Positions 14,626 to 48,700 of a stretch of DNA of 64,000 nucleotides are shown here, piece by piece. The notes below the pieces were generated by a model. It did not search any database. It was not told where the DNA came from and saw only the letters and a program-made list of their open reading frames with translations. The stretch covers positions 26,662,001-26,726,000 of the forward strand of contig NC_086108.1 of NCBI RefSeq assembly GCF_963921235.1. The letters run 5' to 3'. Origin of the DNA: Mobula hypostoma (lineage: Eukaryota). The position numbers were made by a program, and so were the translations under genes. Each line of letters opens with the position of its first letter. Within the stretch, counting starts at the first letter, position 1.

Positions 14626-16408
14626 CTGTGACTTGCCTTTGCCAATATGAATAGAGCTTTAGAAATAACTGGGTTGTTTCAGCCTTCACATTTAATGCAT
14701 AATGTATACAGTATATTCCAACATATAGCGACATTATTACTGTTATTTTGTTGATTTGTAAACAACACATCATCAATCATTGTATCAGATGGCCTTCCCT
14801 TGAGAAATGATTCTAATGTAATACATAAGATGGACGGACCTTTTGATGGAAGGGAAGTCAGTGTGGGTGGCTCCAGATATCACCCTTTTACAGACTATGT
14901 CAATGCATTTATAAAAGCCTTGTTCAATAGGGCCAAGCTATTGAAATCCATCAGCTTTCTCTCTGTCAAATGCATTGTAATGGATCCTTACAGGGTGATG
15001 AACTATTCATTGTTGCTACATAACTGCAATACACGATCACACCCACAGGAAAGATTTGTTTGCCAAACACTGCTCACTTCACTTGCAGAAAGCAATGAGA
15101 ATATTGGCTCCTATCATTTATTTACAAGTCCTTGATGCTGCTGTTCCACTAGCAGCTCCTGAGCTCCATTCAGTGTTTTCTTTTGCTGTGGTCTTCTAGC
15201 AAAGATTGCAGACTCTCGTTGCTAGTGCCTTATTGGAGTGGTGCTGTCAGGGACCACCGACTGCTGAAGCAGTGAATACTGGTCATTATTTATTCGTGTA
15301 CCTAATATTGTAATATTTACTTTTGTTTGACAGTTTTCTTGGAGTGAAAATGTGTTTAAGACAGTAGGAAGCACAATAGCCATGTTTGACTCTGGCTGAT
15401 CACAGTTGGTCAGCTGAACTCAATCATCAATTACTGGGATCAAAGAGGCCAGTTAGCTTTCTGTCTGCTCATCTGTCTGCCTATCCTCCTGACTTTCTGT
15501 TCATCTGTCCGAATGCCTATCTGTCTCTGACTGCCTGAAAGAGTTTGACAGACTCAGCGGAGCACCAGACAACTTGCCTTCTCATCAGGCTCTGGCTCCA
15601 CGCATTGTGGATTATTCAGCTAGAAAATAGATGTTTGTGTCATTTTCTGAAAGTTTTAACAGGACGAAAACCATTCTCCATTGAAATCTGTCTAACTTTT
15701 CCAGCTCAGCATTATTCAAAATTTACTGGTGTCCTTTGCACAGATAATGGTAGCATCAACATGTGTGAGACTCCCCTTTGCTGGACTCTAAGAAATTAGA
15801 TCAAAGATGTGCATCTATCATCATAGTTTTCAATTCACAGTGGGAAAGAGCAAACCTCACTTTATGCCCCTAAAGAAACATGAATTAAAGGGTCTGGTTA
15901 TCAATGTGTAGCTAACTGCACCAACCTACCTTATTTCTTAAATGTTCTGCATATTTCAAAAATTATTTCTGAGTCTTACTCGGTTTATAATTTGAATGCA
16001 AATTATTCAGCAATCCTGAAATAAAACCAAAAGTGCTCAGCATGTTGAGTAGATGAAGAGGACCAGAGTCAACCGTTTAGGTCAATGATCTTTCTTCCAA
16101 GCTGAGAAAACATAGAACCCCAATATGTTTTGAGTTGCAGAGAAAAAGGACAAGTGAGCTATCAGTTAGTTTTTGTACTTTTACACAGTACTTTTTGCAG
16201 CTAAGCACAGCATTGACAACTGTTGTGATCCCAGCATGGGGGAGGTACCTAGGCCTCTCAGTAATTTGGGGACCCACAACAAGATGGGACTGAATCTGGG
16301 TGAGTTATGGCCTTATGCACTAAGCACACTAAATGATGAAGCCACACTCAGGTTGGAGAAACAACACCTTACATTCCATCTGGGTAGCCTCCAACCTGAT
16401 GGCATGAC

Positions 16409-17907
16409 TTCAAAACTCGTTAGATTCTGGACTAGTTCCTGAGGATTGGAGGGTGGCTAATGTAACCCCACTTTTTAAAAAAGGAGGGAGAGAGAAACCG
16501 GGGAATTATAGGCCGGTTAGCCTAACGTCGGTGGTGGGGAAACTGCTGGAGTCAGTTATCAAGGATGTGATAACAGCACATTTGGAAAGCGGTGAAATGA
16601 TCGGACAAAGTCAGCATGGATTTGTGAAAGGAAAATCATGTCTGACGAATCTCATAGAATTTTTTGAGGATGTAACTAGTAGAGTGGATAGGGGAGAACC
16701 AGTGGATGTGGTATATTTGGATTTTCAAAAGGCTTTTGACAAGGTCCCACATAGGAGATTAGTGTGCAAACTTAAAGCACACGGTATTGGGGGTAAGGTA
16801 TTGGTGTGGGTGGAGAATTGGTTAGCAGACAGGAAGCAAAGAGTGGGAATAAACGGGACCTTTTCAGAATGGCAGGCGGTGACTAGTGGGGTACCGCAAG
16901 GCTCAGTGCTGGGACCCCAGTTGTTTACAATATATATTAATGACTTGGATGAGGGAATTAAATGCAGCATCTCCAAGTTTGCGGATGACACGAAGCTGGG
17001 TGGCAGTGTTAGCAGTGAGGAGGATGCTAAGAGGATGCAGGGTGACTTGGATAGGTTGGGTGAGTGGGCAAACTCATGGCAGATGCAATTTAATGTGGAT
17101 AAATGTGAAGTTATCCACTTTGGTGGCAAAAATAGGAAAACAGATTATTATCTGAATGGTGGCCGATTAGGAAAAGGGGAGGTGCAACGAGACCTGGGTG
17201 TCATTATACACCAGTCATTGAAAGTGGGCATGCAGGTACAGCAGGCGGTGAAAAAGGCGAACGGTATGCTGGCATTTATAGCGAGAGGATTCGAGTACAG
17301 GAGCAGGGAGGTACTACTGCAGTTGTACAAGGCCTTGGTGAGACCACACCTGGAGTATTGTGTGCAGTTTTGGTCCCCTAATCTGAGGAAAGACATCTTT
17401 GCCATAGAGGGAGTACAAAGAAGGTTCACCAGATTGATTCCTGGGATGGCAGGTCTTTCATATGAAGAAAGACTGGATGAACTGGGCTTGTACTCGTTGG
17501 AATTTAGAAGATTGAGGGGGGATCTGATTGAAACGTATAAGATCCTAAAGGGATTGGACAGGCTAGATGCAGGAAGATTGTTCCCGATGTTGGGGAGGTC
17601 TAGAACGAGGGGTCACAGTTTGAGGATAGAGGGGAAGCCTTTTAGGACCGAGGTTAGGAAAAACTTCTTCACACAGAGAGTGGTGAATCTGTGGAATTCT
17701 CTGCCACAGCAAACTGTTGAGGCCAGTTCATTAGCTATGTTTAAAAGGAAGTTAGATATGGCCCTTGTGGCTACAGGGGTCAGGGGGTATGGAGGGAAGG
17801 CTGGGTTCTGAGTTGGATGATCAGCCATGATCATAATAAATGGCGGTGCAGGCTCGAAGGGCCGAATGGCCTACTCCTGCACCTATTTTCTATGTTTCTA
17901 TGTTTCT
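16409..17907 (+). mobile_element. Young 5'-truncated CR1 LINE
   Basis: Uninterrupted RT ORF, CR1 3' UTR and (TTCTATGT)n tail at ~17888-17907. Confidence 0.95.
16453..17811 (+). CDS. CR1 ORF2 reverse transcriptase domain, 5'-truncated (452 aa open)
   Basis: NYRPVSLTS, QHGF, YLDFQKAFDKVPH, GVPQGSVLGP, KFADDTKL. Confidence 0.92.
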   Translation: MANVTPLFKKGGREKPGNYRPVSLTSVVGKLLESVIKDVITAHLESGEMIGQSQHGFVKGKSCLTNLIEFFEDVTSRVDRGEPVDVVYLDFQKAFDKVPHRRLVCKLKAHGIGGKVLVWVENWLADRKQRVGINGTFSEWQAVTSGVPQGSVLGPQLFTIYINDLDEGIKCSISKFADDTKLGGSVSSEEDAKRMQGDLDRLGEWANSWQMQFNVDKCEVIHFGGKNRKTDYYLNGGRLGKGEVQRDLGVIIHQSLKVGMQVQQAVKKANGMLAFIARGFEYRSREVLLQLYKALVRPHLEYCVQFWSPNLRKDIFAIEGVQRRFTRLIPGMAGLSYEERLDELGLYSLEFRRLRGDLIETYKILKGLDRLDAGRLFPMLGRSRTRGHSLRIEGKPFRTEVRKNFFTQRVVNLWNSLPQQTVEASSLAMFKRKLDMALVATGVRGYGGKAGF

Positions 17908-19480: not shown

Positions 19481-21804
19481 CTAGCGGAAGTTAGAGAAGT
19501 CAATGTTCATGCCATCAGGTTGGAGGCTACCCAGACGGAATATAAGGTGTTGTTCCTCCAACCTGAGTGTGGCTTCATCTTTACAGTAGAGGAGGCCGTG
19601 GATAGACATGTTGGAATGGGAATGGGATGTGGAATTAAAATGTGTGGCCACTGGGAGATCCTGCTTTCTCTGGCGGACAGAGCGTAGATGTTCAGCAAAG
19701 CGGTCTCCCAGTCTGCGTCGGGTCTCACCAATATATAAAAGGCCACATCCGGAGCACCGGACGCAGTATATCACCCCAGTCGACTCACAGGTGAAGTGAT
19801 GCCTCACCTGGAAGGACTGTTTGGGGCCCTGAATGGTGGTAAGGGAGGAAGTGTAAGGGCATGTGTAGCACTTGTTCCGCTTACACGGATAAGTGCCAGG
19901 AGGGAGATCAGTGGGGAGGGATGGGGGGGACGAATGGACAAGGGAGTTGTGTAGGGAGCGATCCCTGTGGAATGCAGGGGGGGGGAGGGAAAGATGTGCT
20001 TAGTGGTGGGATCCCGTTGGAGGTGGCGGAAGTTACGGAGAATAATATGTTGGACCCGGAGGCTGGTGGGGTGGTGGGAGGATGGAGTGAGAGCAGATGT
20101 ACGTGAAATGGGGGAGATGCGTTTAGGAGCAGAGTTGATAGTGGAGGAAGGGAAGCCCCTTTCTTTAAAAAATGAAGACATCTCCCTCGTCCTAGAATGA
20201 AAAGCCTCATCCTGAGAGCAGATGCGGCGGAGACGGAGGAATTGCGAGAAGGGGATGGCGTTTTTGCAAGAGACAGGGTGAGAAGAGGAATAGTCCAGAT
20301 AGCTGTGAGAGTCAGTAGGCTTATAGTAGACATCAGTGGATAAGCTGTCTCCAGAGACAGAGACAGAAAGATCTAGAAAGGGGAGGGAGGTGTCGGAAAT
20401 GGACCAGGTAAACTTGAGGACAGGGTGAAAGTTGGAGGCAAAGTTAATAAAGTCAACGAGTTCTGCATGCGTGCAGGAAGCAGTGCCAATGCAGTCGTCG
20501 ATGTAGCGAAGGAAAAGTGGGGGACAGATACCAGAATAGGCACGGAACATAGATTGTTCCACAAACCCAACAAAAAGGCAGGCATAGCTAGGACCCATAC
20601 GGGTGCCCATAGCTACACCTTTGGTTTGGAGGAAATGGGAGGAGCAAAAGGAGAAATTATTAAGAGTAAGTACTAATTCCGCTAGACGGAGCAGAGTGGT
20701 GGTAGAGGGGAACTGATTAGGTCTGGAATCCAAAAAGACGCGTAGAGCTTTGAGACCTTCCTGATGGGGGATGGAAGTATATAAGGATTGGACATCCATG
20801 GTGAAAATAAAGCGGTGGGGGCCAGGGAACTTAAAATCATCGAAAAGTTTAAGAGCGTGAGAAGTGTCACGAACATAGGTCGGAAGGGATTGAACTAGGG
20901 GTGATAAAACAGTGTCGAGGTATGCAGAAACGAGTTCGGTGGGGCAGGAGCAAGCTGAGACAATAGGTCGGCCAGGACAGGCAGGTTTGTGGATCTTGGG
21001 TAGGAGGTAGAAACGGGAAGTGCGGGGTGTGGGAACTATAAGGTTGGTAGCAGTGGATGGGAGATCCCCTGAGCGGATAAAGTCGGTGATAGTGTGGGAG
21101 ACAATGGCCTGGTGCTCCTTAGTGGGGTCACGATGGAGGGGTAAATAAGAGGAGGTATCCGCGAGTTGTCGCTGTGCCTCGGCAAGGTAGAGGTCAGTAC
21201 GCCAGACTACAACAGCACCCCCCTTATCAGCGGGTTTAATAATAACGTTAGGATTAGTGCGGAGGGAGTGGAGAGCAGAGCGTTCCGAAGGAGTGAGGTT
21301 GGAATGGGGACAAGGTGCGGTGAAGTCGAGACGGTTGATGTCCCGTCGGTAATTAGCGATAAAGAGATCCAGAGCAGGCAGAAGACCAGAGCGGGGTGTC
21401 CATGAAGAAGAGGAGGGTTGAAGACAGGAGAAGGGGTCATCGGTGGGGGTGGAAGAGTCCTTGCCGAAGAAGTAGGCTCGGAGACGGAGACGGCGGAAGA
21501 AAAGTTCCGCATCATGGCGAACATGGAACTCGCTGAGGTGTGGGCGAAGGGGGACAAACGTGAGGCCCTTACTGAGAACAGAGCGCTCTGCCTCCGACAG
21601 TTGAAGGTCGGAGGGGATGGTAAAGACCTGGCACGGATGAGAGCTGGGATCAGAGGGGGGAGGGGGGAGGCTGGGGGTGTCAGTGGAGAGGGGAGGCTGG
21701 GGGTGAGAGGAAGATGGAGCCTCTGAGGGCCCAGGAGTTGACGGTGGGATCTGAGGAAGACGGGGCTGCGGAGTGGTGGTGGGGGAAGGGGAGACGGGAG
21801 TCAC
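19481..21804 (-). pseudogene. Penelope RT plus GIY-YIG endonuclease, frameshifted
   Basis: 666 aa ORF (KPADKGG, MDVQSLYTSI, GVAMGT, RYIDD) and separate 108 aa ORF (GVIYCVRC..C...YIGET.R.L..RF.EH); 39 bp and ~4 bp deletions relative to the right arm. Confidence 0.9.
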
Positions 21805-21942
21805 AACAGCAGCACATAAAGACCCAGTCTGGAGTTCAAGGCTGGAGTCGCAGTTGGTGGTTGCGCAATCGCTGTGAAGGTGTCCATGGTCGTTGCTGGA
21901 GTCCGGGTTTTGAATATGTCCTGAGGTGTTGGAGCCGCCGTC

Positions 21943-24474
21943 ATGTTAGGCAAAGATCGCAAGATCTTACATCTACGGACTCCAGAGCCTGCCGGCCCCG
22001 ACGCTAGCAGGCATGAACTTTCAATTGCGGCCTCTGCCATTGATCTCGGCGGCTCCAACACCTCAGGACATATTCAAAACCCGGACTCCAGCAACGACCA
22101 TGGACACCTTCACAGCGATTGCGCAACCACCAACTGCGACTCCAGCCTTGAACTCCAGGCCGGGTCTTTATGTGCTGCTATTGTGACTCCCGTCTCCCCT
22201 TCCCCCACCACCACTCTGCAACCCCGTCTCCCTCAGATCCCACCGTCAGCTCCTGGGCCCTCAGAGGCTCCATCTTCCTCTCACCCCAACCCTCACCTCT
22301 CCACTGACACCCCCAGCCTCCCCCCTCTCCCCTCTGATCCCAGCTCTCATCCGTGCCGGGTCTTTACCATCCCCTCCGACCTTCAACTGTCGGAGGCAGA
22401 ACGCTCTGTTCTCAGTAAGGGCCTCACCTTTGTCCCCCTTCGCCCACACCTCAGTGAGTTCCGTGTTCGCCATGATGCGGAACTTTTCTTCCGCCGTCTC
22501 CGTCTCCGAGCCTACTTCTTCGGCAAGGACTCTTCCAATCCCACCGATGACCCCTTCTCCTGTCTTCAACCCTCCTCTTCTTCATGGACACCCCGCTCTG
22601 GTCTTCTGCCTGCTCTGGATCTCTTTATTGCTAACTGCCGACGGGACATCAACCGTCTCGACTTCACCGCACCTTGTCCCCATTCCAACCTCACTCCTTC
22701 GGAACGCTCTGCTCTCCACTCCCTCCGCACTAATCCTAACGTTATTATTAAACCCGCTGATAAGGGGGGTGCTGTTGTAGTCTGGCGTACTGACCTCTAC
22801 CTTGCCGAGGCACAGCGACATCTCGCGGATACCTCCTCTTATTTACCCCTCCATCGTGACCCCACTAAGGAGCACCAGGCCATTGTCTCCCACACTATCA
22901 CCGACTTTATCCGCTCAGGGGATCTCCCATCCACTGCTACCAACCTTATAGTTCCCAAACCCCGCACTTCCCGTTTCTACCTCCTACCCAAGATCCACAA
23001 ACCTGCCTGTCCTGGCCGACCTATTGTCTCAGCTTGCTCCTGCCCCACCGAACTCGTTTCTGCATACCTCGACACTGTTTTATCACCCCTTGTTCAATCC
23101 CTTCCGACCTATGTTCGTGACACTTCTCACGCTCTTAAACTTTTCGATGATTTTAAGTTCCCTGGCCCCCACCGCTTTATTTTCACCATGGATGTCCAAT
23201 CCTTATATACTTCCATCCCCCATCAGGAAGGTCTCAAAGCTCTACGCGTCTTTTTGGATTCCAGACCTAATCAGTTCCCCTCTACCACCACTCTGCTCCG
23301 TCTAGCGGAATTAGTACTTACTCTTAATAATTTCTCCTTTTGCTCCTCCCATTTCCTCCAAACCAAAGGTGTAGCTATGGGCACCCGTATGGGTCCTAGC
23401 TATGCCTGCCTTTTTGTTGGGTTTGTGGAACAATCTATGTTCCGTGCCTATTCTGGTATCTGTCCCCCACTTTTCCTTCGCTACATCGACAACTGCATTG
23501 GCGCTGCTTCCTGCACGCATGCAGAACTCGTTGACTTTATTAACTTTGCCTCCAACTTTCACCCTGTCCTCAAGTTTACCTGGTCCATTTCCGACACCTC
23601 CCTCCCCTTTCTAGATCTTTCTGTCTCTGTCTCTGGAGACAGCTTATCCACTGATGTCTACTATAAGCCTACTGACTCTCACAGCTATCTGGACTATTCC
23701 TCTTCTCACCCTGTCTCTTGCAAAAACGCCATCCCCTTCTCGCAATTCCTCCGTCTCCTCCGCATCTGCTCTCAGGATGAGGCTTTTCATTCTAGGACGA
23801 GGGAGATGTCTTCATTTTTTAAAGAAAGGGGCTTCCCTTCCTCCACTATCAACTCTGCTCTTAAACGCATCTCCCCCATTTCACGTACATCTGCTCTCAC
23901 TCCATCCTCCCACCACCCCACTAGGAATAGGGTTCCCCTGGCCCTCACCTACCACCCCACCAGCCTCCGGGTCCAACATATTATTCTCAGTAACTTCCGC
24001 CACCTCCAATGGGATCCCACCACTAAGCACATCTTTCCCTCTCCCACTCTCTCTGCATTCCGCAGGGATCGCTCCCTACACAACTCCCTTGTCCATTCGT
24101 CCCCCCCATCCCTCCCCACTGATCTCCCTCCTGGCACTTATCCGTGTAAGCGGAACAAGTGCTACACATGCCCTTACACTTCCTCCCTTACCACCATTCA
24201 GGGCCCCAAACAGTCCTTCCAGGTGAGGCATCACTTCACCTGTGAGTCAACTGGGGTGATATACTGCGTCCGGTGCTCCCGATGTGGCCTTTTATATATT
24301 GGTGAGACCCGACGCAGACTGGGAGACCGCTTTGCTGAACATCTACGCTCTGTCCGCCAGAGAAAGCAGGATCTCCCAGTGGCCACACATTTTAATTCCA
24401 CATCCCATTCCCATTCCAACATGTCTATCCACGGCCTCCTCTACTGTAAAGATGAAGCCACACTCAGGTTGTAG
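21943..24474 (+). CDS. Penelope RT-GIY-YIG polyprotein (843 aa open), probably defective
   Basis: PLE RT motifs, C..C..C linker and GIY-YIG domain; catalytic motif reads YIDN; TAG at 24472 where the left arm has Glu. Confidence 0.88.
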   Translation: MLGKDRKILHLRTPEPAGPDASRHELSIAASAIDLGGSNTSGHIQNPDSSNDHGHLHSDCATTNCDSSLELQAGSLCAAIVTPVSPSPTTTLQPRLPQIPPSAPGPSEAPSSSHPNPHLSTDTPSLPPLPSDPSSHPCRVFTIPSDLQLSEAERSVLSKGLTFVPLRPHLSEFRVRHDAELFFRRLRLRAYFFGKDSSNPTDDPFSCLQPSSSSWTPRSGLLPALDLFIANCRRDINRLDFTAPCPHSNLTPSERSALHSLRTNPNVIIKPADKGGAVVVWRTDLYLAEAQRHLADTSSYLPLHRDPTKEHQAIVSHTITDFIRSGDLPSTATNLIVPKPRTSRFYLLPKIHKPACPGRPIVSACSCPTELVSAYLDTVLSPLVQSLPTYVRDTSHALKLFDDFKFPGPHRFIFTMDVQSLYTSIPHQEGLKALRVFLDSRPNQFPSTTTLLRLAELVLTLNNFSFCSSHFLQTKGVAMGTRMGPSYACLFVGFVEQSMFRAYSGICPPLFLRYIDNCIGAASCTHAELVDFINFASNFHPVLKFTWSISDTSLPFLDLSVSVSGDSLSTDVYYKPTDSHSYLDYSSSHPVSCKNAIPFSQFLRLLRICSQDEAFHSRTREMSSFFKERGFPSSTINSALKRISPISRTSALTPSSHHPTRNRVPLALTYHPTSLRVQHIILSNFRHLQWDPTTKHIFPSPTLSAFRRDRSLHNSLVHSSPPSLPTDLPPGTYPCKRNKCYTCPYTSSLTTIQGPKQSFQVRHHFTCESTGVIYCVRCSRCGLLYIGETRRRLGDRFAEHLRSVRQRKQDLPVATHFNSTSHSHSNMSIHGLLYCKDEATLRL

Positions 24475-24847
24475 GAACAACACCTTATATTCCGTCTGGG
24501 TAGCCTCCAACCTGATGGCATGAACATCGACTTCTCTAACTTCCGCTAAGGCCCCACCTCCCCCTCGTACCCCATCTGTTACTCATTTTTATGCACACAT
24601 TCTTTCTCTCACTCTCCTTTTTCTCCCTCTGTCCCTCTGAATATACCTCTTGCCCATCCTCTGGGTCACCCCCCCCCCACCTTGTCTTTCTTCCTGGACC
24701 TCCTGTCCCATGATCCTCTCGTATCCCCTTTTGCCTATCACCTGTCCAGCTCTCGGCTCTATCCCTCCCCCTCCTGTCTTCTCCTATCATTTTGCATCTC
24801 CCCCTCCCCCTCCAGCTTTCAAATCACTTACTCACTCTTCCTTCAGT

Positions 24848-24885: not shown

Positions 24886-25047
24886 CGCCTCTTCCTATAG
24901 ATGCTGCTTGGCCTGCTGCGTTCACCAGCAACTTTGATGTATGTTGCTTGAATTTCCAGCATCTGCAGAATTCCTGTTGTTTGCGTATACAAGTTTCAAT
25001 GGGCGGTCAGCTACTAGCTTTCTGATTGTCTCAGCTTTGATTTGCAA

Positions 25048-25053
25048 ATTAAA
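25048..25053 (+). terminator. Candidate LTR polyadenylation signal ATTAAA
   Basis: Present at the same position in both LTRs, downstream of the TATA box and upstream of a GT/T-rich U5. Confidence 0.55.
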
Positions 25054-25788
25054 GTTTAAAACATCTTGACGAGTTTTCTGCGTCTCCTTGTCGTTTGTGA
25101 GAAACGAGAAACCATGATAAAATTGGCCTAACAAACAGAATCGGATAGAGACCTGCGAGGAAGGGAACGGCAGATTGGGATGCTTCCCGGTCCCTCGGGG
25201 ACCCTCACGGGGCTAACAGAATTAAAGGTGCACCCAAAGAAAAAAGGTGAGCGCTTTTTGCGATAATTCGGACTAAGAATTCTGTTGGTTTTGGGGGGTC
25301 TCGGGGACTCAGAAGTGTGAAACAACTGCCGAAGGGTCTCTCCGATCCAAAGAACCTGGCAGAATTGGGGATAAAAGGAGGCTCAGAGGATTAATCAAGA
25401 GCACGGCAGTGGGGGTAAGTACGAATAAAGTAATAATATGTTAAGTAAGAAAATTCCACGTGGTGTTGGTAAGTCCCTGTGGATACCGCTTCGCATGAAA
25501 CGAAGGTCTGAACAGGCAGGGAAGGAGAATTAAAAATCCTCGTGAATACCGCCTTAAGAAGTGTAAGGGAGGTGTAAAAGGAAAAAGTTCTGTGGATACC
25601 ACCCTAAGTAGAGGTCTGCACGGGCAGAACGTAATAAGAGATAAAGATAGTTTAATAGATAATTCAGACGCTGGTGAAATAAACCATAAGGCTAGGCATA
25701 GAAATAGAATTAGAGAAATAGTATTATTAAATAGGCAAGTAGTGAGATTCTAAGAATACCATAATAGAAAAAGGAAAAAGAGAACAAC

Positions 25789-27765
25789 ATGACAGAGAAA
25801 GGAACAGCAGTAGAAATATTGAGCAGAAAATTCCCGGTGTGTAAAGGTAAGATCGCAGAAATTTCAGAAAAATGGGAAAAAAGAACTAAAAAACTGGTCA
25901 CGAAATGGCCAAGAGAAGGAACGTTTGATGTAAGCTTATGTGAGGAAATGGAAGTGCTAATTAAAAATCACAAACCCAAAGATAAATCTAAGAAAAGAGA
26001 GAAAAATGGGAACAAGAAATGGAAGTGTTAAAACTCTTTAGGATGGAGGGAGAAAGGTTAAGAAAGACGGGGAGTATATTAATAGTAAGTAAAAAAGACA
26101 CTGAGAAACGAAAGGAGCAGTCTGATAAAGAAAAGGAGAAGCATAACAGGGGGCCGGCTTCAGCTCTATACCCAGACCTGAAAGACGTAGAGAAACCTCC
26201 TCCCTATTACGAGAAAGAAACCCTCAAGCAGTGTCTGATGATAACAGGAAGAGTGGATCTAAATGGAGAAATTAAAGTCTGGGATACCGAGGAGGAAAGA
26301 AAGAATCACGAGAAGGAGCAGGAGGAACTATGGAAGGTAATAGAAGAAGACAGGGCAAAGATAGAACAGGAGAAAAGGGAAATAGAAGAAGAGATCAAAG
26401 GGTTACAGGAATTAAAAGTGAAAAGGGATGAAGAGAAATCTTTGTTATATGGGAACGGAACTGAACAGGCTAGAGCAGAAGGTAACTTGTCGGGAGAGCA
26501 AGAGTTAAGCAGCGAAAGAGAGGGTGCAGGTGAGTGTAGGTAGAGGATAGGAGATAGGAGCCTTGAAGGGGAAAAAGAGAGTGAAAAGGCAGATATTAGA
26601 AACAGAGGAAGAGATTAGGAAATTACAGCAGAGAATGAATTTCCAACGGGAGTTTGAAGATTTTGCATGGGCTCAAGCAAACGCTAGCTCAAGGCAGAAA
26701 GGAAGAACTCCACGAGGAGGCCAAGGGAGAAAGGAAACCCCGGAAAGAATCATGTGGCAGCCAGTAAAAACGTGCTCAGAAACAGATGGGGAGTCAGGCG
26801 AGGAAGAGAGTCAGGAGATGTGGGAAAGGAAAGGGAGAATGATGCCGTTGTTAGTAAAAGGATTGGGACAAGTACAGTATATTCCTTGGGGATCCCAGGA
26901 CCTGGAAGGGCTGAAAAACACCCTGCCCAGCCTACATGAGGGTGCAGGGAAGTGGATTAGGGCCTTTGAGGAAGAAACCATGGGACAAATGTTGGCTATG
27001 GGAGATTTGAAGGCGCTGCTGATAAGGCTGATGGGAACCTCCAAACTACAAGAGCTGATGGAAGTGGCTGGCATACAGAATGTGGACAGCACACTGATTG
27101 ACGGGGCCAGATTTGACACAGTGTGGCAGAAGGTATGGGGGGCCCTCAGGGAGCTCTATCCACCCAAAATGGACCCCAAAGCCATGAAAGGGGATCCACT
27201 GGGAGACACTGAAAATTCAGCAGCCTATATAGAAAATCAGTTGAAAAGGTGGAGACTGGAAACTGAACAAGAAGTGGAAGGCAACCCGTTTATGACCTGG
27301 ATGTTCCAAAATACCGTTTTGGATGCAATGCCTCCCCAAGTTAAGTCTAATCTTGAGGAAGTGGTTGGACTGATCTCAATGACCCCACAGGAATTCAGGG
27401 ACCACGTAGTCCATGCGGTCGAAAAATATAGAAAAGACAAACGAAAGTTGACTGAGCAGAAAGAAGAAGTGAAAAGAAAGCTGATACAAATGCAGCTTGA
27501 AGAGCTTAAAAAGAAGGAAAAAGAAAAAGGCAAGAAGATGCTGCCAGCAATGACCAATTTAAGCACAGCCGTTAAAGTGAATGAAATGCCATTATATGGA
27601 GGGACTGGTCATGCCGTAAGACAGAGCCTGGAAAACCCCATGCCAATAATAAACGTCTTTGGGGGAGCTTTTCTGCAAATGCTCTATCAGGGACAGGATA
27701 AATTTAAACAGCAGCACAGACAGGACTAGAAATCCCAGGGAGGGGGGCAGAGAGGTTATGGGCAG
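25789..27765 (+). pseudogene. gag: Retroviral gag, disrupted
   Basis: Consecutive ORFs 25789-26031, 26019-26543 (ALYPDL, PPPY late domain) and 26563-27729 (capsid-like YIPW...DL..LK..LP...GAGKWI..FEE); position between PBS and env. Confidence 0.8.
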
Positions 27766-27865
27766 GAAGGACCCTTTACAGTAACCAAAGCATCACCCAT
27801 CGCAGTTCAAGTAGAAGGACGCTCCACCTGGTCTATCATCTCAGTCACTGCACTAGAGCAGTTCC
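27766..27865 (+). pseudogene. pol: Integrase C-terminal (GPY/F) remnant of pol
   Basis: EGPFTVTKASPIAVQVEGRSTW / YHLSHC. Confidence 0.75.
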
Positions 27866-28023
27866 GCAGGTACAGTCAGGTGGGCCACCCGAGGTAAGTG
27901 GTGAAGAGGAACAAACAGTAGAGGACAGACAAGAGCAACAAGAAGCTGATACTGAACCATAGGAACTTGACCAAGTAATAAGGGAAATTTTTAGTCCTGA
28001 GGACAGGCCAGAAGACCCTAAGG

Positions 28024-29655
28024 ATGGGGTTATGGATGGTAGTACTCTTTCAGATAATAGGGACAACTTGAGGGCGACAAGTCCTGCGCCCCGGGATGAT
28101 ACACTCAGATACTCTCGTGCAGATTTGGAGACCATTAATTTGGCAGATGTGGCATGGGACTGTTAGGATCCCACAAAACCGGAGAGAAAGGAGTAAGAGG
28201 AGCACAACGGTTACCTCCGTACCATGGTACCAGAACATGTGATACCAATGGGCAAATTATACAGCAGGGATGATGAAGAGACAGAATTGTTATCTATGCT
28301 CAAGGGCAAGTCTGGTGCAATATGTAGTCCCCATGCCTTATAACTCCTCCTCCTGCACGCAATGGCGAAAGGAGTGGAGGGGGCAGTGTGCGCAGCAGTG
28401 TCCAAGTGTAGTCAAGACCTGCAGCATGGGAATTTGTAGCGGGACGGATCCTTGTTATCAGAAATGTATTGATAACACCCCATATTGCCCTTATTGGTGT
28501 ATGTTATACCAGGCTTCCTCGCAGTTTGATCAAAATAAGCTTGCCTCTAACTGTAATTACAGCAGACCGTGGGCTATAAATAAAATAAGCCAGACACCCA
28601 CATTGGGAAAGCTTAAAATGCAGGAACATTTGAGTTATGAACGTTTCACGCGGACAGGTGACCTCTCGGTTGGGCATTTCAATGGCAACTGTGTTAAGAT
28701 TTGGGATGTAACCCCAGGCCGAAGATACCAGACAGGTGCCCCTCTGCCCGAGGGTGCACTGAACTCCCAGACCATCCCATTAGGAGATACCTGGTGGCTG
28801 TGTGGACAGGAGGGGGGTCTGAGATCCACGCTTCCCTGTAATTGGGCGGGTACATGTACGCGTGTTATGCTGATTCAAAAAGTTGTAGTATCCCCTGAAA
28901 TACAGTTTGACACCTCGAGGCAACAGACACTAAAACAGAGGAAGAGAAAATATGAGCCCGACCTGACGATTCGGATCAATAGTATAGGACAGCCGAGGGG
29001 TATACCTAATGAGTTTAAGGCAAGAAATAAGATTGCTGCGGGCTGGGAAGCACTTATACCTGTGATAGGGGTTAGCAAAAATGTTGAATGGATAAATTAT
29101 ATGTATTATAATCAGCAGAGATTCATTAACTACACCGATGATGCACTAGAGGCTTTGAGACAGCAGATAGATGCAACCAGTAGAGTGGCGTGGCAAAATA
29201 GACAGGTACTAGACTGGCTATTGGCAGAGAAAGGAGGGGTTTGTGTAATGTTTGGGGAACAGTGCTGTGCTTTTATACCGAATAACACTAGTCCGGAGGG
29301 ATCATTTACCAGAGCAATGAATAAACTGAAAAATCTAAGAAAGGAAGTTAATCAAAATGCAGGGTTTGGACACCAGTTCTTTGACTGGTTAAATAGTAAA
29401 CTAGGAGGATGGGGAGCATGGCTGACTGAGATTGCAGTAACCATTGGTATTGTATTACTAAGCTGTGCGGTCATTCTGTGCTGTTTTCTTCCATGCCTCA
29501 AGTCGCTTGTAGTGCGAGCTGCAATGAAACGGTTTCCGATGCTTCTGGAAATTATTGGGTCGAGCCCTATGGAGAAGGAGGCACCGATGATGTATTCGTA
29601 CAGTCTACGAGACACGCAAGACGAACAGGAGAGAGATGAAATATGTGGGGATTAG
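28024..29655 (+). pseudogene. env: Retroviral envelope (gamma-type); open 28270-29655, with two in-frame TGA upstream
   Basis: Signal-like MGLWMVVLFQII at 28024, CYLC, RKRK furin site, IGQPRGIPNEFKARNKIAAG fusion region, QNRQVLDWLLAEKGGVC immunosuppressive domain, CX6CC, TM helix. Confidence 0.9.
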
Positions 29656-29885
29656 ACTGTGAAGGCTCCTGAGTCTTTTTCCCTGTCTCAGATACGAAGG
29701 GATGGGTTTTTGGCTCAGCGGCCTAGGGAGGTAGGAAGAGAACACTTTGAGTCCTAAGCGCAGGAAACTATAGTTTAACCCAAATTTGGGAGTAAATGCG
29801 GGGCTTTATTTGAGCTTTTGTGCATAGACTGTCAGTCCTCTCTCTCTCTCTGTATGAGACCCTGTGGGTCTCAAAAGGCAGATTA

Positions 29886-30448
29886 TATTGGAAAATGCAT
29901 TGTATTTTCTATGTATTACAGTATTTACTCAAATGTACACATTGTGTTTTCTAAATTTACTATGTAACCACTGCTAGCTGAATAGAAGGTATTCACTATG
30001 TAGCCATGACTTTTGACCTGATCACTATTAATTCATGAAGAGAACTAAAATGAAACCAATTAGAAAGATAACGGTGGCAAGTTAGGTGATGAAATATATG
30101 GCAGTATGTCAACACAAGACTAATTAAGAAATAACTGTGGTTAGGGATGAGAGGACATATGATCTAAAATGCAAACTAGGACATAATTAAGTTGGGGAGT
30201 AAAACAATAGTGGAAAGCCGAGAGTGGATATATTGATGATATGTAATCACAGGCCGACTGGATATGATAATGATAATGATAGCTAAGATAGGAAAATTGC
30301 TACAAAAAATGCTGTATACAAGCCTCACCGGGCAGTCAGCTACTAGCTTTCTGATTGTCTCAGCTTTGATTTGCAAATTAAAGTTTAAAATGTCTTGACG
30401 AGTTTTCTGCGTCTCCTTGTCATTTGTGAGAAACGAGAAACCACGACA
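29886..30448 (+). repeat. ERV 3' LTR
   Basis: tattggaaaatgc...gaaaccacgaca; preceded by aaaaggcagatta. Confidence 0.92.
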
Positions 30449-30773
30449 AAGGCTCATCATCTTCAAGAAATGTGAGTTGGGAGAAAATACATATTCTGTC
30501 TATTTTCTTTTTCGTTCACGCAGTTTATGCGCAAGTGAATTTTATTCCATATCTTAAGTTTTTGGCTAGTGACCTATAAAGTCTGTGAAGTTGAATTTCA
30601 GTAATCTGAGCAGCTGTAATGTGGGGGTCACCTGTACATAATAGGTAGAGCTCTTAAAGGTACATATACACACTTGTCTAAATATATTATGAAAAAAGCA
30701 AACCTGTGGAAATAATGACAATCCACATCTTAAATTACACATTTGTGAAATTCTACAATTAAATAATTATTAC

Positions 30774-32726
30774 TATTGTGTGTTTCATATTTCGGTAGTA
30801 TTTGAATAATGTTGTAAATATATTGATTAAGCATTCTTGTTTGTTTAAATAATTCATTCCATATTATATGTAAAATTATGTGAATTGTATATGTCATCAC
30901 ACCACCATATGACAAAATATCTGATAATGATGAGAGTGACACAGGACTATGTAACCTTGAGGTATACAATGTAAAAACTAACAATAGATGAGCAACATGG
31001 CTTATACCAAAGGTGAATGGAAAATTAATTAAAATGGAATTGGACTCTGGCTTGGCTGTATCAGTCATTCCACAAAATTAGTTTGAACAACATTTCAAAG
31101 GTACTGAATTGAAGCCAGCAGATATCAAACCAAGAACTTATGTTGGAGAAAATAAAATTCCTGTGGGAATGACACTCATAACAGTGAAATACAACAACCA
31201 GCAAGCCACATTGGGCTTGTATGTGGCAAAAAATAGGAGGGTTACCATTATGGGGGCATGATTGGCTGAAGCAACTACAACTTGATAGGACATTCATCCA
31301 CCATTTGCATGCCACATCCCCTGCAATAGAGCTAACTGAAAGCAAACTAAGGAGTGTGCTGAGTGAGGCCGCAACTGTCTCCATGCCGAACACCAGGAGC
31401 TATTGCCTAACAGAAGGCAAACAGATGTTGGTGCCAACCTCCGTGCCTGTTTGGAAGGCATATTGGACCAAGGAAGGACCATGCTACTCAGAGTCAAAAT
31501 GAAAGTAATTTAATGAAAGCAGTGGTCCAACTACAACAGTTTTGTAGGCAATATTTCTTAGAAAGCTTCTGATAACCAGTCAGTTACTTGTGAAATGCGG
31601 ATTGCTCTTAAGCTGGAAGAGAGTTCAAGGAGCTTCAGGAAAGTTGCAAGCATTTGGCTTTTGTAAGTATAAAGATCCAGAATCTACTCTGCGTGCATAA
31701 ATGATATTGCATGAATTTTGAGTGGGAAACAAAAAGCTGCTTGTAAAAGTAGATGCAAAGGCAAAATCCCAGCTGGATGAATGGAAGGCCAAAAAGAAAA
31801 CAGAAAATAGTCAATGGAGATTAAAAAAGATAAGTGGTATGGATGAGGAAGTCAAGAGGAGAGATCAGATCATAAAGGGACCAACAGAAGGATTAATAAG
31901 AGAATACTCAGTGAACTGAATGCACTTTCCCAACATCAAGATGCATATCATTGAAAGAAGAAAAAGGAAAAGAAAGAAGAGGACTTAAGTGCTATGAAAG
32001 TGGAAGAGGATAAAGGAGACCTTTGCATACAGAGTAGATTCTGGATCTTCATACAAAAGCCGAATTTGTTGATAAACTGGCAAATTCAGAGATACTCACA
32101 AGTAACTAAAAGAAATAGGAAGGCAAGAAAAAGCAAGAGAAGAAGTTGAAAAGGAGGGAAGCAAAGATCAAAATAGATCCAGAGAAAAAAGTTGAGAAAA
32201 GGAGAAGAGTGGTGTCCAGAGCTGTCAGAACCACTTCCTGCAGTCTCAGCGTCAACTCGTATGACCACTACAGAGGAGGACCCAAAACTTGAGATTGTTT
32301 TCACAGCCACAAGTCTCATCTGCCAAGCAGAGCGACCTCCCTTGTTAGGAAAGACATTATCCCACAAGAGTAAGAAATACTCCACAGTGATGCTGTGGAT
32401 GTCTGTGTTGTCATTGTAATATATAGTGTACTGCATACATAGTTGAGATGCATTCTGAGTTTATAGCTAAGCAGGCAGGAATGTCCAGTATTTAATATTT
32501 CAGTAATGTTTGAACAATATTTTCAATATATTGTTTGATTAAGCATTCTTGTTCATTCAAATAATTCATTATGGGCTATATGTAAAAATAAGTAAATTGC
32601 ATAGATCATCACACCGCCATGTTACTTGTGCATGCCTTATTTAAAGTAAGCACAAAGTTAGACTCACATTTTGGATTCCCAAGTCTTTCTTTTAATTACT
32701 TTAATGCTGTGAAGTTATAAAGCACA
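30774..32726 (+). mobile_element. Internally deleted Gypsy LTR retrotransposon carrying a host cDNA fragment
   Basis: LTRs 30774-~30915 (partial) and 32482-32726; ATTAC on both flanks; PPT-like aagcaggcaggaa; protease motifs MELDSGLAVSVI and LWGHDWLKQLQLD. Confidence 0.85.
31420..32190 (+). pseudogene. RBM25: Processed (intronless) RBM25 fragment: RRM through the start of the ER-rich region
   Basis: Frameshifted matches to RBM25 as recalled: MLVPT..RHIGPRKDH, GPTTTV.VGNIS.KASD, KCGLLLSWKRVQGASGKLQAFGFC.YKDPESTLRA, KKLLVKVDAKAKSQLDEWKAKKK, DEEVKRRDQIIKG..EGLIREYS, KFRDTHK. Confidence 0.9.
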
Positions 32727-34304
32727 ATTACTAATGACATAATCTTGATAGCAATTTCTACCCTACCATCTTAACACAAAATTACTACAATATCTATCCC
32801 AGTACTGATAACTCCCATGGATCCCTCCTTCAGTTAGCCTTCATAGATGACTATGCTCATATTCCATAATACAGTTGGTTCCTCAATTATGCACAAATGT
32901 AAATACATTGTTTGCCAAATTGCATATGAAAAACAAACAGTACACAGTCTAGAATGCATTAACTACTACATTCTTTGAAGTATATTTCTAAATACTGTAA
33001 ACCAACCACATCAAATTTTTATTTTCATTCCTTCTTAAGGATCCTTATTTTTATGGTCAGTGGCCTCACTCGGTCTCATATCTTAATTCCGTAGGCACCA
33101 CACCTTTTCGCTTCTCTGCTGTCTCTCCTGAAGTTAGAAAGTAAATGCCTTGGAAATTTCCTCTGTGGACTGATTCCGAGTGCTTTCAATTTGATGCGAT
33201 GCTTTGCAGTCTCTCCTGACCGCGCTGTGTTGAACAAATGTTAGTGAGTCCAGGCCTGTGGCTTTCACTCAGGGGATGGTCAGAATTTTAAATTGCCCAG
33301 GTATTGCAGTGCATTTCTCCCTCAGGTTATCCAGCTCAATCTGCTCTTGATTTTGGCCAATCAGTTGCTCTGGGAGAAAAGAAAGGCCGTTGGGCTTCAG
33401 GCCCTCCTCTTTACCGACTGCATCATAGAGAAGAAAGGATACGAGCAGCTGTCTGAACAGTCAACAAAGTCTTTGGAACTGTGTCTTTAGTATCCTCTTT
33501 AGAAGAAAAGAGGTGATAGAGCATGAAAACAAGCTCTTCAGCCCACCTATTCTGTGCTGACCATCAAACATGGTTTTTCACTAATCCTATCCTAACGTAT
33601 CCTTTATTCCCCCTACCTTCCCACCGGGACAATTCATTGTGGTCTACCAACTCACTAATCTATGGGATGTGGGAGGAAACTGGGGTACCAGGGAAGATGT
33701 GTAGCTGATAGCAACAGAGGTCAGGATTGTACCAGGATCATTGTAGATGTGAGGCAGCAGCTCTACTAACTGCATCACTGTACTGTCCTGCAAAATATAT
33801 TCTTCACTGATCTTTTACTAACACACACTACATCTGGGGCTATCATTTTTCTATATGATTTCACTACTGCCTTTTACTCTATATAAGTAACTTTACCATC
33901 TTTCAGTCTTCTTGGCATGTAATCATTGAGGGTGCTGGCTCAACTGGCTTACCCTGTCAGAAGTACTTCGTATTTATTTGCTTAGCCTCGGTTCCATATT
34001 CTCAATGACCTCATATTGTAGATCAGCCTACAGCTGCCTTTAATAAGAATAGCTTTTGTGTTGTGAAGTCCTAAGTTGTTTTCTATTGTCTTTGCAGATA
34101 GCAAAATAGAAATGGAACTGATATCTATGTTTGACAGAGTTCTCAGATTTTAGAAAATGGAAACTGGCCCTTCAGCCCTTAGTGATCAACAACCATCCAT
34201 TTACGCTAATCCCATTTTAATTCTTCCCATTTTTCCATTTGCATCTCAGCTCATATTCTACCATTTACCTACACACTCAGGACAACTTATAGTGGCTAAT
34301 TATC

Positions 34305-38961: not shown

Positions 38962-40347
38962 TAGGGGTCGCCAACCCGTCGATTGCGTTCGACCGGTCGA
39001 TCTTTGAGACTTTCCCGGTGGATCCCGAAAAAAATCAAAAATAAATACCCAAATACTGTTGTAATGTGAGCATTATAAAAGTAAGTTATACTGATTAGGA
39101 TAATAGTAATATAGCAATATTTTCGCTACAAAGCTGTTTGTAAAGAGAGATTGTTTCTGGGTTACGGGGTTTTAGTTCCGTTCCTTCTGCCCAGTGCGCA
39201 TGTGTGTGGTTCCCCCGCCATGCACCGCGTTTTCAGTGTAGCCGGTGCTGCGTCAAAGTGACCGATCAGGTTTGATAAGAGTACAGACTGTCGCAAACAT
39301 CAATATACGGCAGTGGTCCCCAACCTCCGGGCCACGAAGAATGCAGTGGTGCAGCGGTAGTCGGGATGCACACAGCACATCTTTAAGAAAAAAAAATGAA
39401 ATAAGCAAGATAATCAATTAGCTGCCGCCTGGCACGTAAATGATGGCCCAGGTCAGAGGCGACGCAATCGGCAATCGCTTGTGATATCCTGATAGCGTCG
39501 TGGAGGTTCCACGAAAGAAGGTGAGAACGTACAAATTCCATCCAGAATGGGAAGAGGAATTTCTATTTACCTTGGTGAAAGACAAGTGTGTATGTATGTT
39601 GTGCCACCAAACACAAGCACTGACTAAAAGAGGGAATCTGGAGTGGCACCACAACACCAACCACCAGGAACTTAAAGACACCTACCCCACAAAGAGCGCA
39701 ATTCATGTCAGGAAAGTTGAGGAGCTGAAATCGGGGTTGAAGGCCCAGCAATCGTTTTCCACAAAACATTCTGCTCAAAATAAGGCTGCTATTGAAACAT
39801 CATTTCGTGTAAGTCACCTTTTGGCTAAACACAAGAAGCCTTTTACAAATGGCGATTTATTTAAGGAAGCAATGGCCATTACCGCAGAGTCTGTTTTTAA
39901 TGACTTTAAAAACAAAAGCGGCATCACAACCGCAATACATAATATACCGCTTGGCTCTGCAACAGAGACAAGGAGAGTAGAGTCATTGTCGGAGGACGTG
40001 GGTATTTTTCACTACAGTTCGATGAATCCCTGGATGTAATGCAAACAGTTCAGCTTGTTGTATTTGTCAGAATGGCTTTCCAGGATTTTACAACAAAGGA
40101 GGACTTCCTCACTCTTTTCCAATTAAAGGAGAGAACGAGAGGTGAGGATATTTACAATGATTTTAAAAAATATGTCCATGAAAATGACATCCCCATTCAT
40201 AAATTGGTGGCAATTACTACTGATGGGGCCCCAGCAATGCGCGATGTGTGCGTTAGCTTTATAGCACTAAAAGTCAGTGCCTACTTCAGGTCAACTTATC
40301 TATGTGAAATTGCATTTTCATAGATGAAAATTATTAAATCTAAGTAC
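38962..40347 (+). mobile_element. hAT (Charlie/SPIN, GTF2IRD2/ZBED-like) DNA transposon relic, internally deleted
   Basis: TIR-like tAGGGGTCGCCAAC after TGTTAGAC; BED finger (EWEEEFLF...CVCMLC...NL..HH..NH); FSLQFDES, ITTDGAPAM; then a jump to STYLCE.AFS.M..IKSK. Confidence 0.85.
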
Positions 40348-44890: not shown

Positions 44891-45739
44891 TGCTGTCCTC
44901 ACCACCAACTCAATCTGCAACCTAAAAATCCAAGTACACGATATCCACTGATTTTCCGTTAGTCTACCCTGCTTGTTATTTCTTCAAAGAATTCCAACAA
45001 ATTTGTCAGGAAAGACTTTTCCTTGAGGAAACCATTTTGATTATGACCTATTCTCTATCCATACTAGTAACTTTCCTGTAATACCATGGGCTCTTTTTAT
45101 GGTTAGTTACAATTTATTAATGTGACATACATCTTTTATGCAAATAGAAGTAAATATTTTATATTAATATGGATGTGCTAGTTTGTAGATAGATAATCTG
45201 TGTGTTCTATGAGTAAAGATTTGGGGAAAGTATGTTTCCATTATGAGCAAGGATGGGAACAAAATGGTTTCGGGTGGATGATCCAGGCACAAAGGGAATG
45301 AAAGACTGAGTATAGGAAGTGGGCCTAAGGGAGAAAATGACAATTGTTTTGGAAATTAGCTCAAGCAGCTACTGACTGAGATCTGTTTCTTTTCTTTATG
45401 TTTGCATGTTCTAAGCAATCCCAGCCTAATCAGAGACATGAGAAACAAGGAGTGGGATGCAAAAGAATTAAATTATTCATTCATTTAATATTTAACTTTG
45501 CAAAAGATGATGGGAAGACAGCAGGAAAAGAAAAGCATTTTATCCTAGCTTCTTGCTTAATAATTCTGTTTATCTATTAGCTACAAATCAGCAATTACAT
45601 AAACCCTAAAGTTTGCAACAGGTATAATAGGTTAAATAAGCAGGATCATGCAAGAGAACAGTTATGCATCAAATTAAATCTCTCTTGGCATCATGAAATG
45701 TTAATGGTCATTCAGTTGGCAGAACAAATAGATAAAGCT

Positions 45740-48700
45740 TCTAGTTTACATGGAGAAACATACCCTCGGGGTTCTCCGAGAGAGAGGGAGAATGATGGAC
45801 CCAATCGGACGGATACAGTTAATTACAGGGAACCACTACAACCAAGAGCTAGGATAAGAGGCTCTGAGTGTCCAGTGTGTTGGTGTGGGAGAGCGTTTTC
45901 CAGCATTAAAGATTTACGAGTCCACCAAGCAAAGTTGAAGTGCTATTCCATCCCAGTGGATGAAGATGAGATTACTTCACCAAGCACAGATGATGTGGTC
46001 TTTTCAACCACTGATTCACAAGCCACAGCGATTCGCTCTGGAGAGCGTCATCATACTCCAGGTCAGACGAGAGACAACTCAGGTCAGGTTTCAGCCCACA
46101 GTACCCAGGTAGATCCTTCACATAATGGCAGTGGTGTGGAGGTAGAGAAGAACAGGAAGGTCAAGTGGCCAGCAATGGCAGATGAGAAGGCTTGGTGTGT
46201 GTTTCATGAGGATATCAGTATGATGTTGGAGAACACACTCAGGGGAACATCAAAGAGAAAGTTGGAAGTGATGGGCGATATGATTTACGATGTTGGAAAG
46301 TACAGGTTTGGTTTGGTTGAGTTGATGAAAGCAAAGCCTACACAGCAACCAAGCAGGCGCCAGAAGGAGATTAGTAGGTTGAGGAGAGAGCTTAGATCAT
46401 TGAGACAGAGGTGGAAGGTAGCAAGTGAGGGTGACAAGCCAGGGCTTGCTGATCTCCGAGAGCATTTTCGAATAAAGTTAGCATCACTCCGTCATGCAGA
46501 GTCACAACGTAAAAAGAGAAAGAAGAGAGAGAAGGCAAGAAAGTTGTTCTTTGAGAACCCTCACGAGTTCACAAAGAAACTATTTGAACAAAGAAGAGCG
46601 GGCAGCTTAACATCTCTCAACAAGAACTTGAGGATCACTTGGCAAGCACTTACTCTAACGAACAGCAGGAGACATTTCAGGGCTTGTGAAGCCTACCAAG
46701 CCAGGAGTGAAGTTCGATCTGTCAGAACCCAAACTGGCAGAAGTCGAAGGGTTCCTCAGAAAGGCAAGGTCAGGCTCAGTGCCAGGACCTAATGGAGTGC
46801 CGTATAAGGTGTTCAAGAAGTGTGAACAGCTGAGGAAATACTTGTGGAGATTGTTAAAGGTGGTGTGGAGACAAGGTGTTGTTCCTTTGTCATGGAGTGA
46901 GGCTGAAGGAGTATACATCCCGAAGGAAGAGAATTCTACGACATTGAATCAGTTCTGACCAATTTCACTCCTGAATGTAGAGGGGAAGATTACGTTTGGC
47001 ATTCTGGCAAAAAGAATACCTTCATTTGTGATAGAGAATGGATTAGTAAATACATCTATGCAGAAGGCAGGAGTACCAGGCTTCCCAGGCTGCCTTGAAC
47101 ATTCTAGTATGATATGGCATACCATCCAGGAGTCAAAAAGGTTGAGAAGAAATCTGGCTGTAGTTTGGCTTGATCTGGCAAATGTGTATGGTTCTGTTCC
47201 CCATGTCCTGATTGAGTTTGCAATGGAATTCCTATGGATTCCTGCTAAGGTGAGGAACTTTGCTATGCAGTACTGCAACAATTTCCGGATGAGGTTTTCC
47301 ACTCAGTAGTTTACAACTAGGTGGCAGAGCTTGGATGTTGGAATCCCAATAGGATGTGCAATTTCACCCATCCTTTTTGTGTTAGCCATGGAGGTAATTA
47401 AAAGGGATGCAGAATCAGTGGGACCAGGTGCCGTACTTGATGGCGGAGGGAAGTTACCACCAAAACGAGTGTTCAGGGATGATCTTACCCTTTTGGGTCC
47501 CAGCACGGAGGCAGTGGAAAATGTACTATCTAGACTTGAGGAGCTAATGGATTGGGGAAGAATGAAGTTCAAGACCAAGAAGTCAAGGAGCCTTGTTCTT
47601 AGGAGAGGGAAGCTGGTTGACTTTCATTTCACCCTTTGTGGAGAGGAGATTCCATCCATTCAGGACCAACCAGTTAAGAGCCTCGGGCGATGGTACACAG
47701 AGGAGCTGAGAGACACCAAGAGGGTTCAAAAGACAGAAGAACAGATCAGCAGAGGTCTGATGTCTGTTGACAAGTGTGGCTTGCCTGGCAATTTGAAGTT
47801 GTGGTGCTTGCAGTACGGACTGATGCCACGGATAATGTGGCCACTAACTGTCTATGAAGTGGCAATGTCCCATGTTGAGGCAATGGAACGGAAGATCAAC
47901 AAGTATGTGAAGAAGTGGCTTGGAGTACCGAGCAGCCTCACCAATGTTGCAATCCACAGTAGCCAGACAAAGCTTACCATCCCAGTGCAATCCCTTGTTG
48001 AAAAGGTCAAGGTAGCCAAGGTAAGATCATTCTTGATGCTTCAAGACTCAAAAGACCCTGTCATCAAGAACACCCAGCCGGATGTGAGATCAGGCAGGAA
48101 GTGGTCAGCCTGTGTAGCAGTTGATGAGGCAGAGTCTATTTGAAGCACAAGGAGACGGTTGGGGCTATCCAGCTAGGCCACCAGGGTCTTGGATGGACAA
48201 CCTACAAGTGGTGGTCATCTTCTACAGGTAAGGAGCGCCGTGAGCTTGTAACACAAGAAATACGAGAGGTAGAAGAGGAGAAGAGGTTAGCAAAAACAGC
48301 TGGTCTGGCCAAACAAGGGGCTTGGCCCCAGTGGAAAGTGTTGAACAACAACATCTATCTTGGACTGTTCTATGGCAGATGGAACTGCATTTCTTTTCTG
48401 TGCAGAGCAGCGTACGATCTGCTCCCAACACCTGCCAACCTCAGCACCTGGTATGAAGGTAAGACAGACAGGTGTGCTGCTTGTGGTGAGAAGGGAACAC
48501 TTCAACATATTTTGAGTGCATGCAGAGCCAATCTTTCCAGCAGCATGTACATTTGGAGACATAACAATGTTCTCAAAGTTGTAACAGAAGCAGTTGACCA
48601 GAGAGTACTGCAGCACAACTTGTCTCATGCCCCATGCTGCACAGAACATCGCATATCATTTGTGAAAGAAGGCTCCAAGTCAAGGGTGTACAGCGCAGGC

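Follow-up and report, generated by a model that had tools for sequence, protein, structure and literature searches.

An RBM25 fragment in place of the RT and integrase core of a Gypsy-type LTR element, likely spread as a large non-autonomous family

How a piece of RBM25 coding sequence came to lie inside an LTR retrotransposon, and whether it remained a single accident or travelled on with its carrier, is the question raised by a locus of Mobula hypostoma at positions 30774–32726 of a 64,000-nucleotide stretch (the window, on which all coordinates are based; features lie on the plus strand unless stated otherwise). An initial annotation, made from the sequence alone, proposed that a Gypsy element had captured a fragment of host mRNA. 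The reading favoured here, with a probability of roughly 0.8, is LTR-mediated capture of RBM25 by a Gypsy-type element, followed by growth of the chimera into a large non-autonomous family.

The element is framed by the 5-mer ATTAC at 30769–30773 and 32727–32731, a perfect TSD that had been reported and is real, the local background frequency of this 5-mer being ~0.0014 per position. Likeness of the flanks goes slightly beyond the 5-mer (9/10 bases), which was taken as a coincidence with the LTR start. Its description as LTR-bounded holds in part: the 3' LTR is 32482–32726 (245 bp, TG...CA), while the 5' LTR survives as a remnant of its first 140 bp (30774–30913). The remnant aligns to 32482–32625, which are the opening 144 bases of the 3' LTR; 31 of 140 columns differ (K2P 0.27 ± 0.05). 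Together with the termini of the 3' LTR and the 5-bp TSD, a polypurine tract (PPT, 32469–32481, 11/13 purines) just before the 3' LTR gives the element the hallmarks of Ty3/Gypsy, apart from its 5' end, which reads TA and not TG. The LTR remnant abuts the end of gag at 30913/30914. The remainder of this LTR is gone, as are the PBS and the larger part of gag, and with the PBS lost, this copy is an immobile relic. No second copy of the chimeric element was found within the 64-kb window.

The surrounding window is repeat-rich, with ORFs that we take to be LINE-like, Penelope-like and retroviral. An ERV at 24985–30450 comprises a gag-like ORF (26551–27729) and an env ORF (28243–29655, TLV_coat E 1.2e-15), pol being absent from the interval between the two; its LTRs are 93% alike over their last 137 bp, and another repeat cuts its 5' LTR short. 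As a carrier of the RBM25 piece it was rejected, since it is bounded by a separate pair of LTRs and stops 320 bp upstream. Two back-to-back RT/GIY-YIG copies at 19481–24529, presumably Penelope-like, form an inverted repeat of 1900 bp that is 98% complementary, with a separation of 62 bp. The broken element at 45581–48706, with RT-like and downstream zinc-finger/endonuclease-like frames, is assumed to be a non-LTR element, the two nearly identical, young RT ORFs at 16408–17811 and 61681–63058 are assumed to be CR1-like, and the remnant at 39485–40323 presumably resembles a hAT-type transposase.

Upstream of the RBM25 piece, 30914–31373 encodes the end of gag, an aspartyl protease and the protease-RT linker, interrupted by stops and by a frameshift near 31233. 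The domain profile search gave only E 0.077 for the stretch from ~30920 against gag-asp_proteas, and a word-index protein search with the protease stretch returned 93 candidates, none at E ≤ 1e-10. With phmmer, 528 relatives were recovered at E ≤ 0.001, the best being P0137 (60%, E 1.8e-21), whose own gag-asp_proteas/RVP matches are below or at the cut-off. By tblastn, P0137 covers 30926–31379 and residues 52–199 of a second relative, P0170, cover 30929–31373; P0170 continues with RVT_1 (218–357), RNase H (420–554) and integrase (624–784), giving the order PR-RT-RH-IN. This domain order is also found in Bel/Pao elements. P0137 possesses gag, protease and tail, and matches to RT, RNase H and integrase are absent from it, a hint that derivatives without pol are frequent in its group; P0137 may instead be a gene-model artefact.

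Downstream of the piece, a frameshifted integrase C-terminal tail occupies 32208–32390, with a left boundary uncertain by ~10 bp. Frameshift-aware alignment of this stretch to the C-terminus of P0137 gave 30/67 identical residues, a spurious first stretch included, and the tail resembles the C-terminus of P0170 by eye as well. The flanks of the cargo therefore match parts of a Gypsy-type polyprotein that are ~750 residues apart and normally have RT, RNase H and integrase between them, from which it follows that the cargo replaces ~750 codons. The proposed placement of the cargo between Gypsy protease remnants and the Gypsy 3' region (integrase tail and PPT), on the same strand, is thus borne out, and so is the claim that RT and integrase were replaced and not interrupted, the flanks corresponding to residues 52–199 and to the far C-terminal tail. 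For a copy without an RT or IN core, the label 'Gypsy' is a probable assignment, drawn from the likeness of protease and tail. None of the 286 proteins compared holds both a protease and an RBM25 match.

The identity of the cargo was confirmed as proposed. A protein search with its RRM stretch gave 410 matches at E ≤ 1e-5, headed by the RBM25-like protein of the shark Heptranchias perlo (P0001, 73%, E 3e-43), and every gene-named protein among the best 120 of these 410 is RBM25. The size first given, ~770 bp at 31420–32190, does not stand: the piece measures ~835 bp and extends over ~31374–32207, with a start segment at 31374–31424 and a pseudogenised main part at 31425–32207 that contains the RRM, a lysine-rich linker and the start of the Arg/Glu-rich region. 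Frameshift-aware alignment of 31356–32102 to residues 8–251 of the unnamed protein P0122, which falls into one cluster with P0001, gave 164/230 identical residues with 6 stops and 6 frameshifts. The alignment to P0008 carries the match on to 32207, with a gap of ~64 codons near 32156 in the Arg/Glu-rich region, and the PWI domain (residues 751–816 of P0008) is missing. The piece thus ends before the PWI domain, in agreement with the claim that it stops mid-CDS; the description as intronless coding sequence is correct as to introns and not as to a clean frame, given the stops, the frameshifts, the gap and a 42-bp inverted copy. The RBM25 cargo is pseudogenised, and this copy of the element has no function now.

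The start segment is in frame with the upstream protease-RT linker. Within it, 31377–31424 corresponds to a 16-codon RBM25 segment found in P0001, P0121 and P0122 only among the 286 proteins compared, two unrelated element proteins among them matching just a short motif of it; it is by this match that the cargo begins upstream of 31420. Directly after the segment, the window has the junction of the P0121 type, without the four residues that P0001 and P0122 have in addition. In L001, an RBM25 gene of vertebrate type, the intron at the place of the segment opens with a donor whose own codons are Val-Ser. The segment may be a cassette exon or an exon extension, possibly an alternative exon of cartilaginous fishes. 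The 42-bp inverted copy, at 32024–32065 on the minus strand, repeats 31652–31697 of the same piece (83% over 46 columns) and is also present in the orthologue of organism B. A long stem is predicted for it (z -6.3), and any transcript would contain a long double-stranded stem of RBM25 sequence; the low contig depth at 32024–32065 suggests that the inverted copy is not family-wide.

Evidence for a spliced source was obtained from a metagenome scan, which yielded 7 loci including L001 and two more intron-bearing RBM25 genes of vertebrate type, L002 and L005. In these three genes, introns with GT donors follow LLA, KLQ, xNG, KEE and THK, and by comparison with them the window crosses at least five vertebrate RBM25 intron positions without introns. 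The exons of L002 match the window end to end (31468–31572, 31592–31650, 31643–31808 and 31832–31982), and an exon of L005 matches 31979–32022; around the xNG junction the window shows local scrambling, with just 24 bases between exon matches. The exon-exon junctions accordingly agree with the spliced origin that had been proposed. Judged against vertebrate-type RBM25 loci other than the host's own, the cargo is a piece of spliced host mRNA.

The 5' junction of the cargo lies within 31371–31383, where the window reads AATV, P0137 AADV and P0122 ATTV, so that the window matches each of them at 3/4 residues. The frame 31236–31451 is open across this junction; such an in-frame join is expected one time in three by chance, would arise naturally from the codon-register similarity and is a lead only. 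A word-index protein search with a 70-residue junction peptide gave no candidate at lengths of 38–123. The 3' junction falls somewhere in a purine-rich stretch near 32195–32212, where poly(A) is absent and the longest nearby A run is 6. One 6-mer occurs near both cargo ends (31349 and 32199); it was rejected as a TSD of the cargo, since a 6-mer of this kind turned up in 33% of 5000 shuffles and the one here lies inside element-like sequence. As had been claimed, the cargo has neither poly(A) nor TSD of its own, and the marks of a LINE-made processed pseudogene, namely a 3' poly(A), the mRNA 3' end and an own TSD, were not found, the PWI region being absent as well. Template switching would fit the similarity at the junctions, seen at the protein level and on the 5' side only.

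The same insertion was traced in other genomes. Part of the stretch is contained in 20 of the 24 runs listed, and contigs of four of them (X1, X6, X13 and X22) were aligned to 30460–33100 at 80% likeness. X1 showed zero differences in three pieces and may come from the source sample. X6, from organism B, spans the TSD junction on either side as well as the 3' cargo junction with 22 differences in 1134 bases, and X13, from organism D, spans the 5' TSD junction with 32 differences in 584 flank-side bases. In all, orthologous contigs reach across the 5' TSD in organisms A, B and D and across the 3' TSD in A and B, and the insertion is common to these three organisms. Going by LTR divergence, it would be about five times older than the split between A and D. 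Among the runs listed as containing the stretch, none is recorded as RNA; X22, which we guess to be RNA, covers the element and the cargo and not most of the flanks. An empty-site joint was not seen among 15 of 1800 joints listed, a blank that carries no weight.

That the chimera may have spread as a family, the last proposal of the initial annotation, is supported by the contigs of three organisms. In X1, X6 and X13, at least 92–123 contigs per site carry a letter other than the window's at every one of 8 sites listed between 31457 and 31767, compared with 1–2 contigs at a depth of 8–16 in the flanks; at site 31396, inside the 16-codon segment, 65–73 contigs do so. Summed depth at 31767 amounts to ~3200 (X1), ~1900 (X6) and ~2200 (X13) times that of the flanks, and it reaches 2500–5700 times at two protease sites and 7300–8300 times at one LTR site. 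Summed contig depth is not copy number and may be inflated up to ~31-fold by the overlap of short contigs. Contig depth is high in the integrase tail at 32208–32390 as well. After correction for the worst case of 31-fold overlap, a floor of ~60–100 copies is left. Likely, the chimera was amplified as a non-autonomous family of hundreds or thousands of copies, an estimate from contig depth.

Near both cargo junctions, depth is 15–40 times below that of the RRM, at ~84–119 times the flanks for 31396 and ~78–126 times for 32192. Local decay can explain these values, since the 3' half of the LTR falls as much, to 30–46 times flank depth; with depth this low at both ends, most RBM25-like copies need not share these junctions. 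Record 13 of X13 (31271–31492) spans the 5' junction with 41 differences in 222 bases, and its divergence of 18.5%, against 5.5% for the orthologous flanks of X13, marks it as a paralogue, the one clear junction-crossing paralogue among the 32 contig pieces listed (80,711 more exist). Joints of the RBM25 piece and the tail at other places, such as one from 31909 to 32221, are present as structural variants in 2–3 contigs per run, so that there was more than one switch, or there were later deletions. At all six sense codons tested (two stop codons excluded), other copies read the host residue and the window differs, which argues that the source copies were nearer to host RBM25 and that the present copy decayed alone.

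On the favoured reading, RBM25 mRNA would have been co-packaged with the RNA of a Gypsy-type element. In a first switch, within the integrase tail, reverse transcriptase would have moved from the element RNA onto the RBM25 mRNA; it would have copied this mRNA from the Arg/Glu-rich region as far as a point shortly ahead of the 16-codon segment, and a second switch would have taken it back onto the element RNA in the protease-RT linker. The chimera would have kept the two LTRs, the PBS, gag, the protease and the PPT, and could therefore have been packaged, copied and integrated in trans by autonomous relatives at hundreds or thousands of sites; the present copy would later have lost its PBS together with most of gag and undergone neutral decay. 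A bolder version is doubtful, namely that a master element made an in-frame Gag-PR-RRM polyprotein, that the RRM or the host RNA segment aided RNA processing, packaging or escape from silencing, and that through this advantage the chimera became one of the main branches of a Gypsy family in cartilaginous fishes, with about a thousand or more sets of RBM25 pseudo-exons.

The closeness of the 5' junction to the start of the 16-codon segment, within ~two codons of what is likely a splice boundary, would also suit a capture by read-through and splicing of the oncoretroviral kind, in which transcription from an element in or upstream of RBM25 produced a chimeric RNA that was spliced to one of the RBM25 exons, with a template switch at the 3' junction only. 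This course is considered unlikely: the Thr at 31374, before the boundary, matches the host protein and not P0137, and the in-register likeness of element and host across the junction is what template switching predicts. Capture in two steps, with an RBM25 retrocopy made by a LINE and later recombined, as transcript or as DNA, into an element that then spread, would draw on the LINE-like ORFs abundant in the window and on the internal gap and the inverted copy as signs of extra rearrangement. Relics of poly(A) and TSD are absent, however, the host residues at 6/6 codons in other copies leave little time for prior decay, and CR1 elements generally make no retrocopies according to the accessible text of PMC8232201, making it highly improbable that matters went this way.

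Least probable of all is that a LINE inserted RBM25 cDNA just once, at this locus, into an element that had already suffered its deletion, with the depth contributed by unrelated RBM25 pseudogenes. Internally deleted relatives do exist, as P0137 without RT illustrates, depth is low at both junctions, and a 6-mer is present near both cargo ends (31349 and 32199). Yet this 6-mer is at chance level within element-like sequence, both cargo ends lie mid-CDS, and a paralogous contig spans the 5' junction.

Capture of host mRNA by LTR elements, the reading preferred above, is a mechanism already known. For LTR-mediated retrocopies of animals, the accessible text of Tan et al. 2016 (Genome Res, PMC5131818) describes 18 sites of insertion belonging to nine retrocopies, two of them multi-site, all being young. 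As in those cases, internal ORFs of an LTR element have given way to part of an mRNA that is truncated on either side; the insert lacks poly(A) and a TSD of its own, and LTRs stand on both sides (the 5' one a remnant here). The chimeras in that text can be mobilised anew as non-autonomous elements, as the RBM25 chimera likely was. Unlike them, the RBM25 chimera is a high-copy repeat in three organisms and old (LTR K2P 0.27). The crocodilian CrocERV29 with KIT-ligand and CrocERV31 with nectin3, with nine and six copies in the parts of Chong et al. 2014 (PMC4299795) drawn on, are similarly ancient captures of vertebrate host mRNA by an LTR element, found at several loci and across species, and nectin3 in CrocERV31 takes the place of a viral gene. 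In contrast to the present Gypsy-type case with its broken cargo, these elements are retroviral, and the KIT-ligand ORFs are described there as intact and under purifying selection. The HERV-K/FAM8A1 chimera and maize Bs1, given as single cases in the introduction of PMC5131818, also contain pieces of host mRNA within an LTR element, and that introduction mentions no family of such size for them.

A literature search, mostly of open-access articles, found no published RBM25-bearing element. By title and abstract, no published gene-capturing animal LTR family of this size was found either, and the supplements of PMC5131818 may hold cases of higher copy number. As far as the published cases compared go, in the text available for each, the likely scale of the present family is unusual and far above theirs.

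A piece of a conserved splicing factor appears to have been adopted permanently by a transposon family that has done well in several species. In the accessible text of PMC13320880, retrocopy pipelines drop candidates that overlap repeats by 40% or more, and such families are likely missed by pipelines filtered in this way. RBM25-bearing families could in turn confuse the annotation of RBM25 and the mapping of reads. The family copies would preserve an ancient RBM25 isoform carrying the 16-codon segment, and with many copies dispersed in the genome, dN/dS on internal branches would show directly whether RBM25 is a passenger or a selected cargo of the element.
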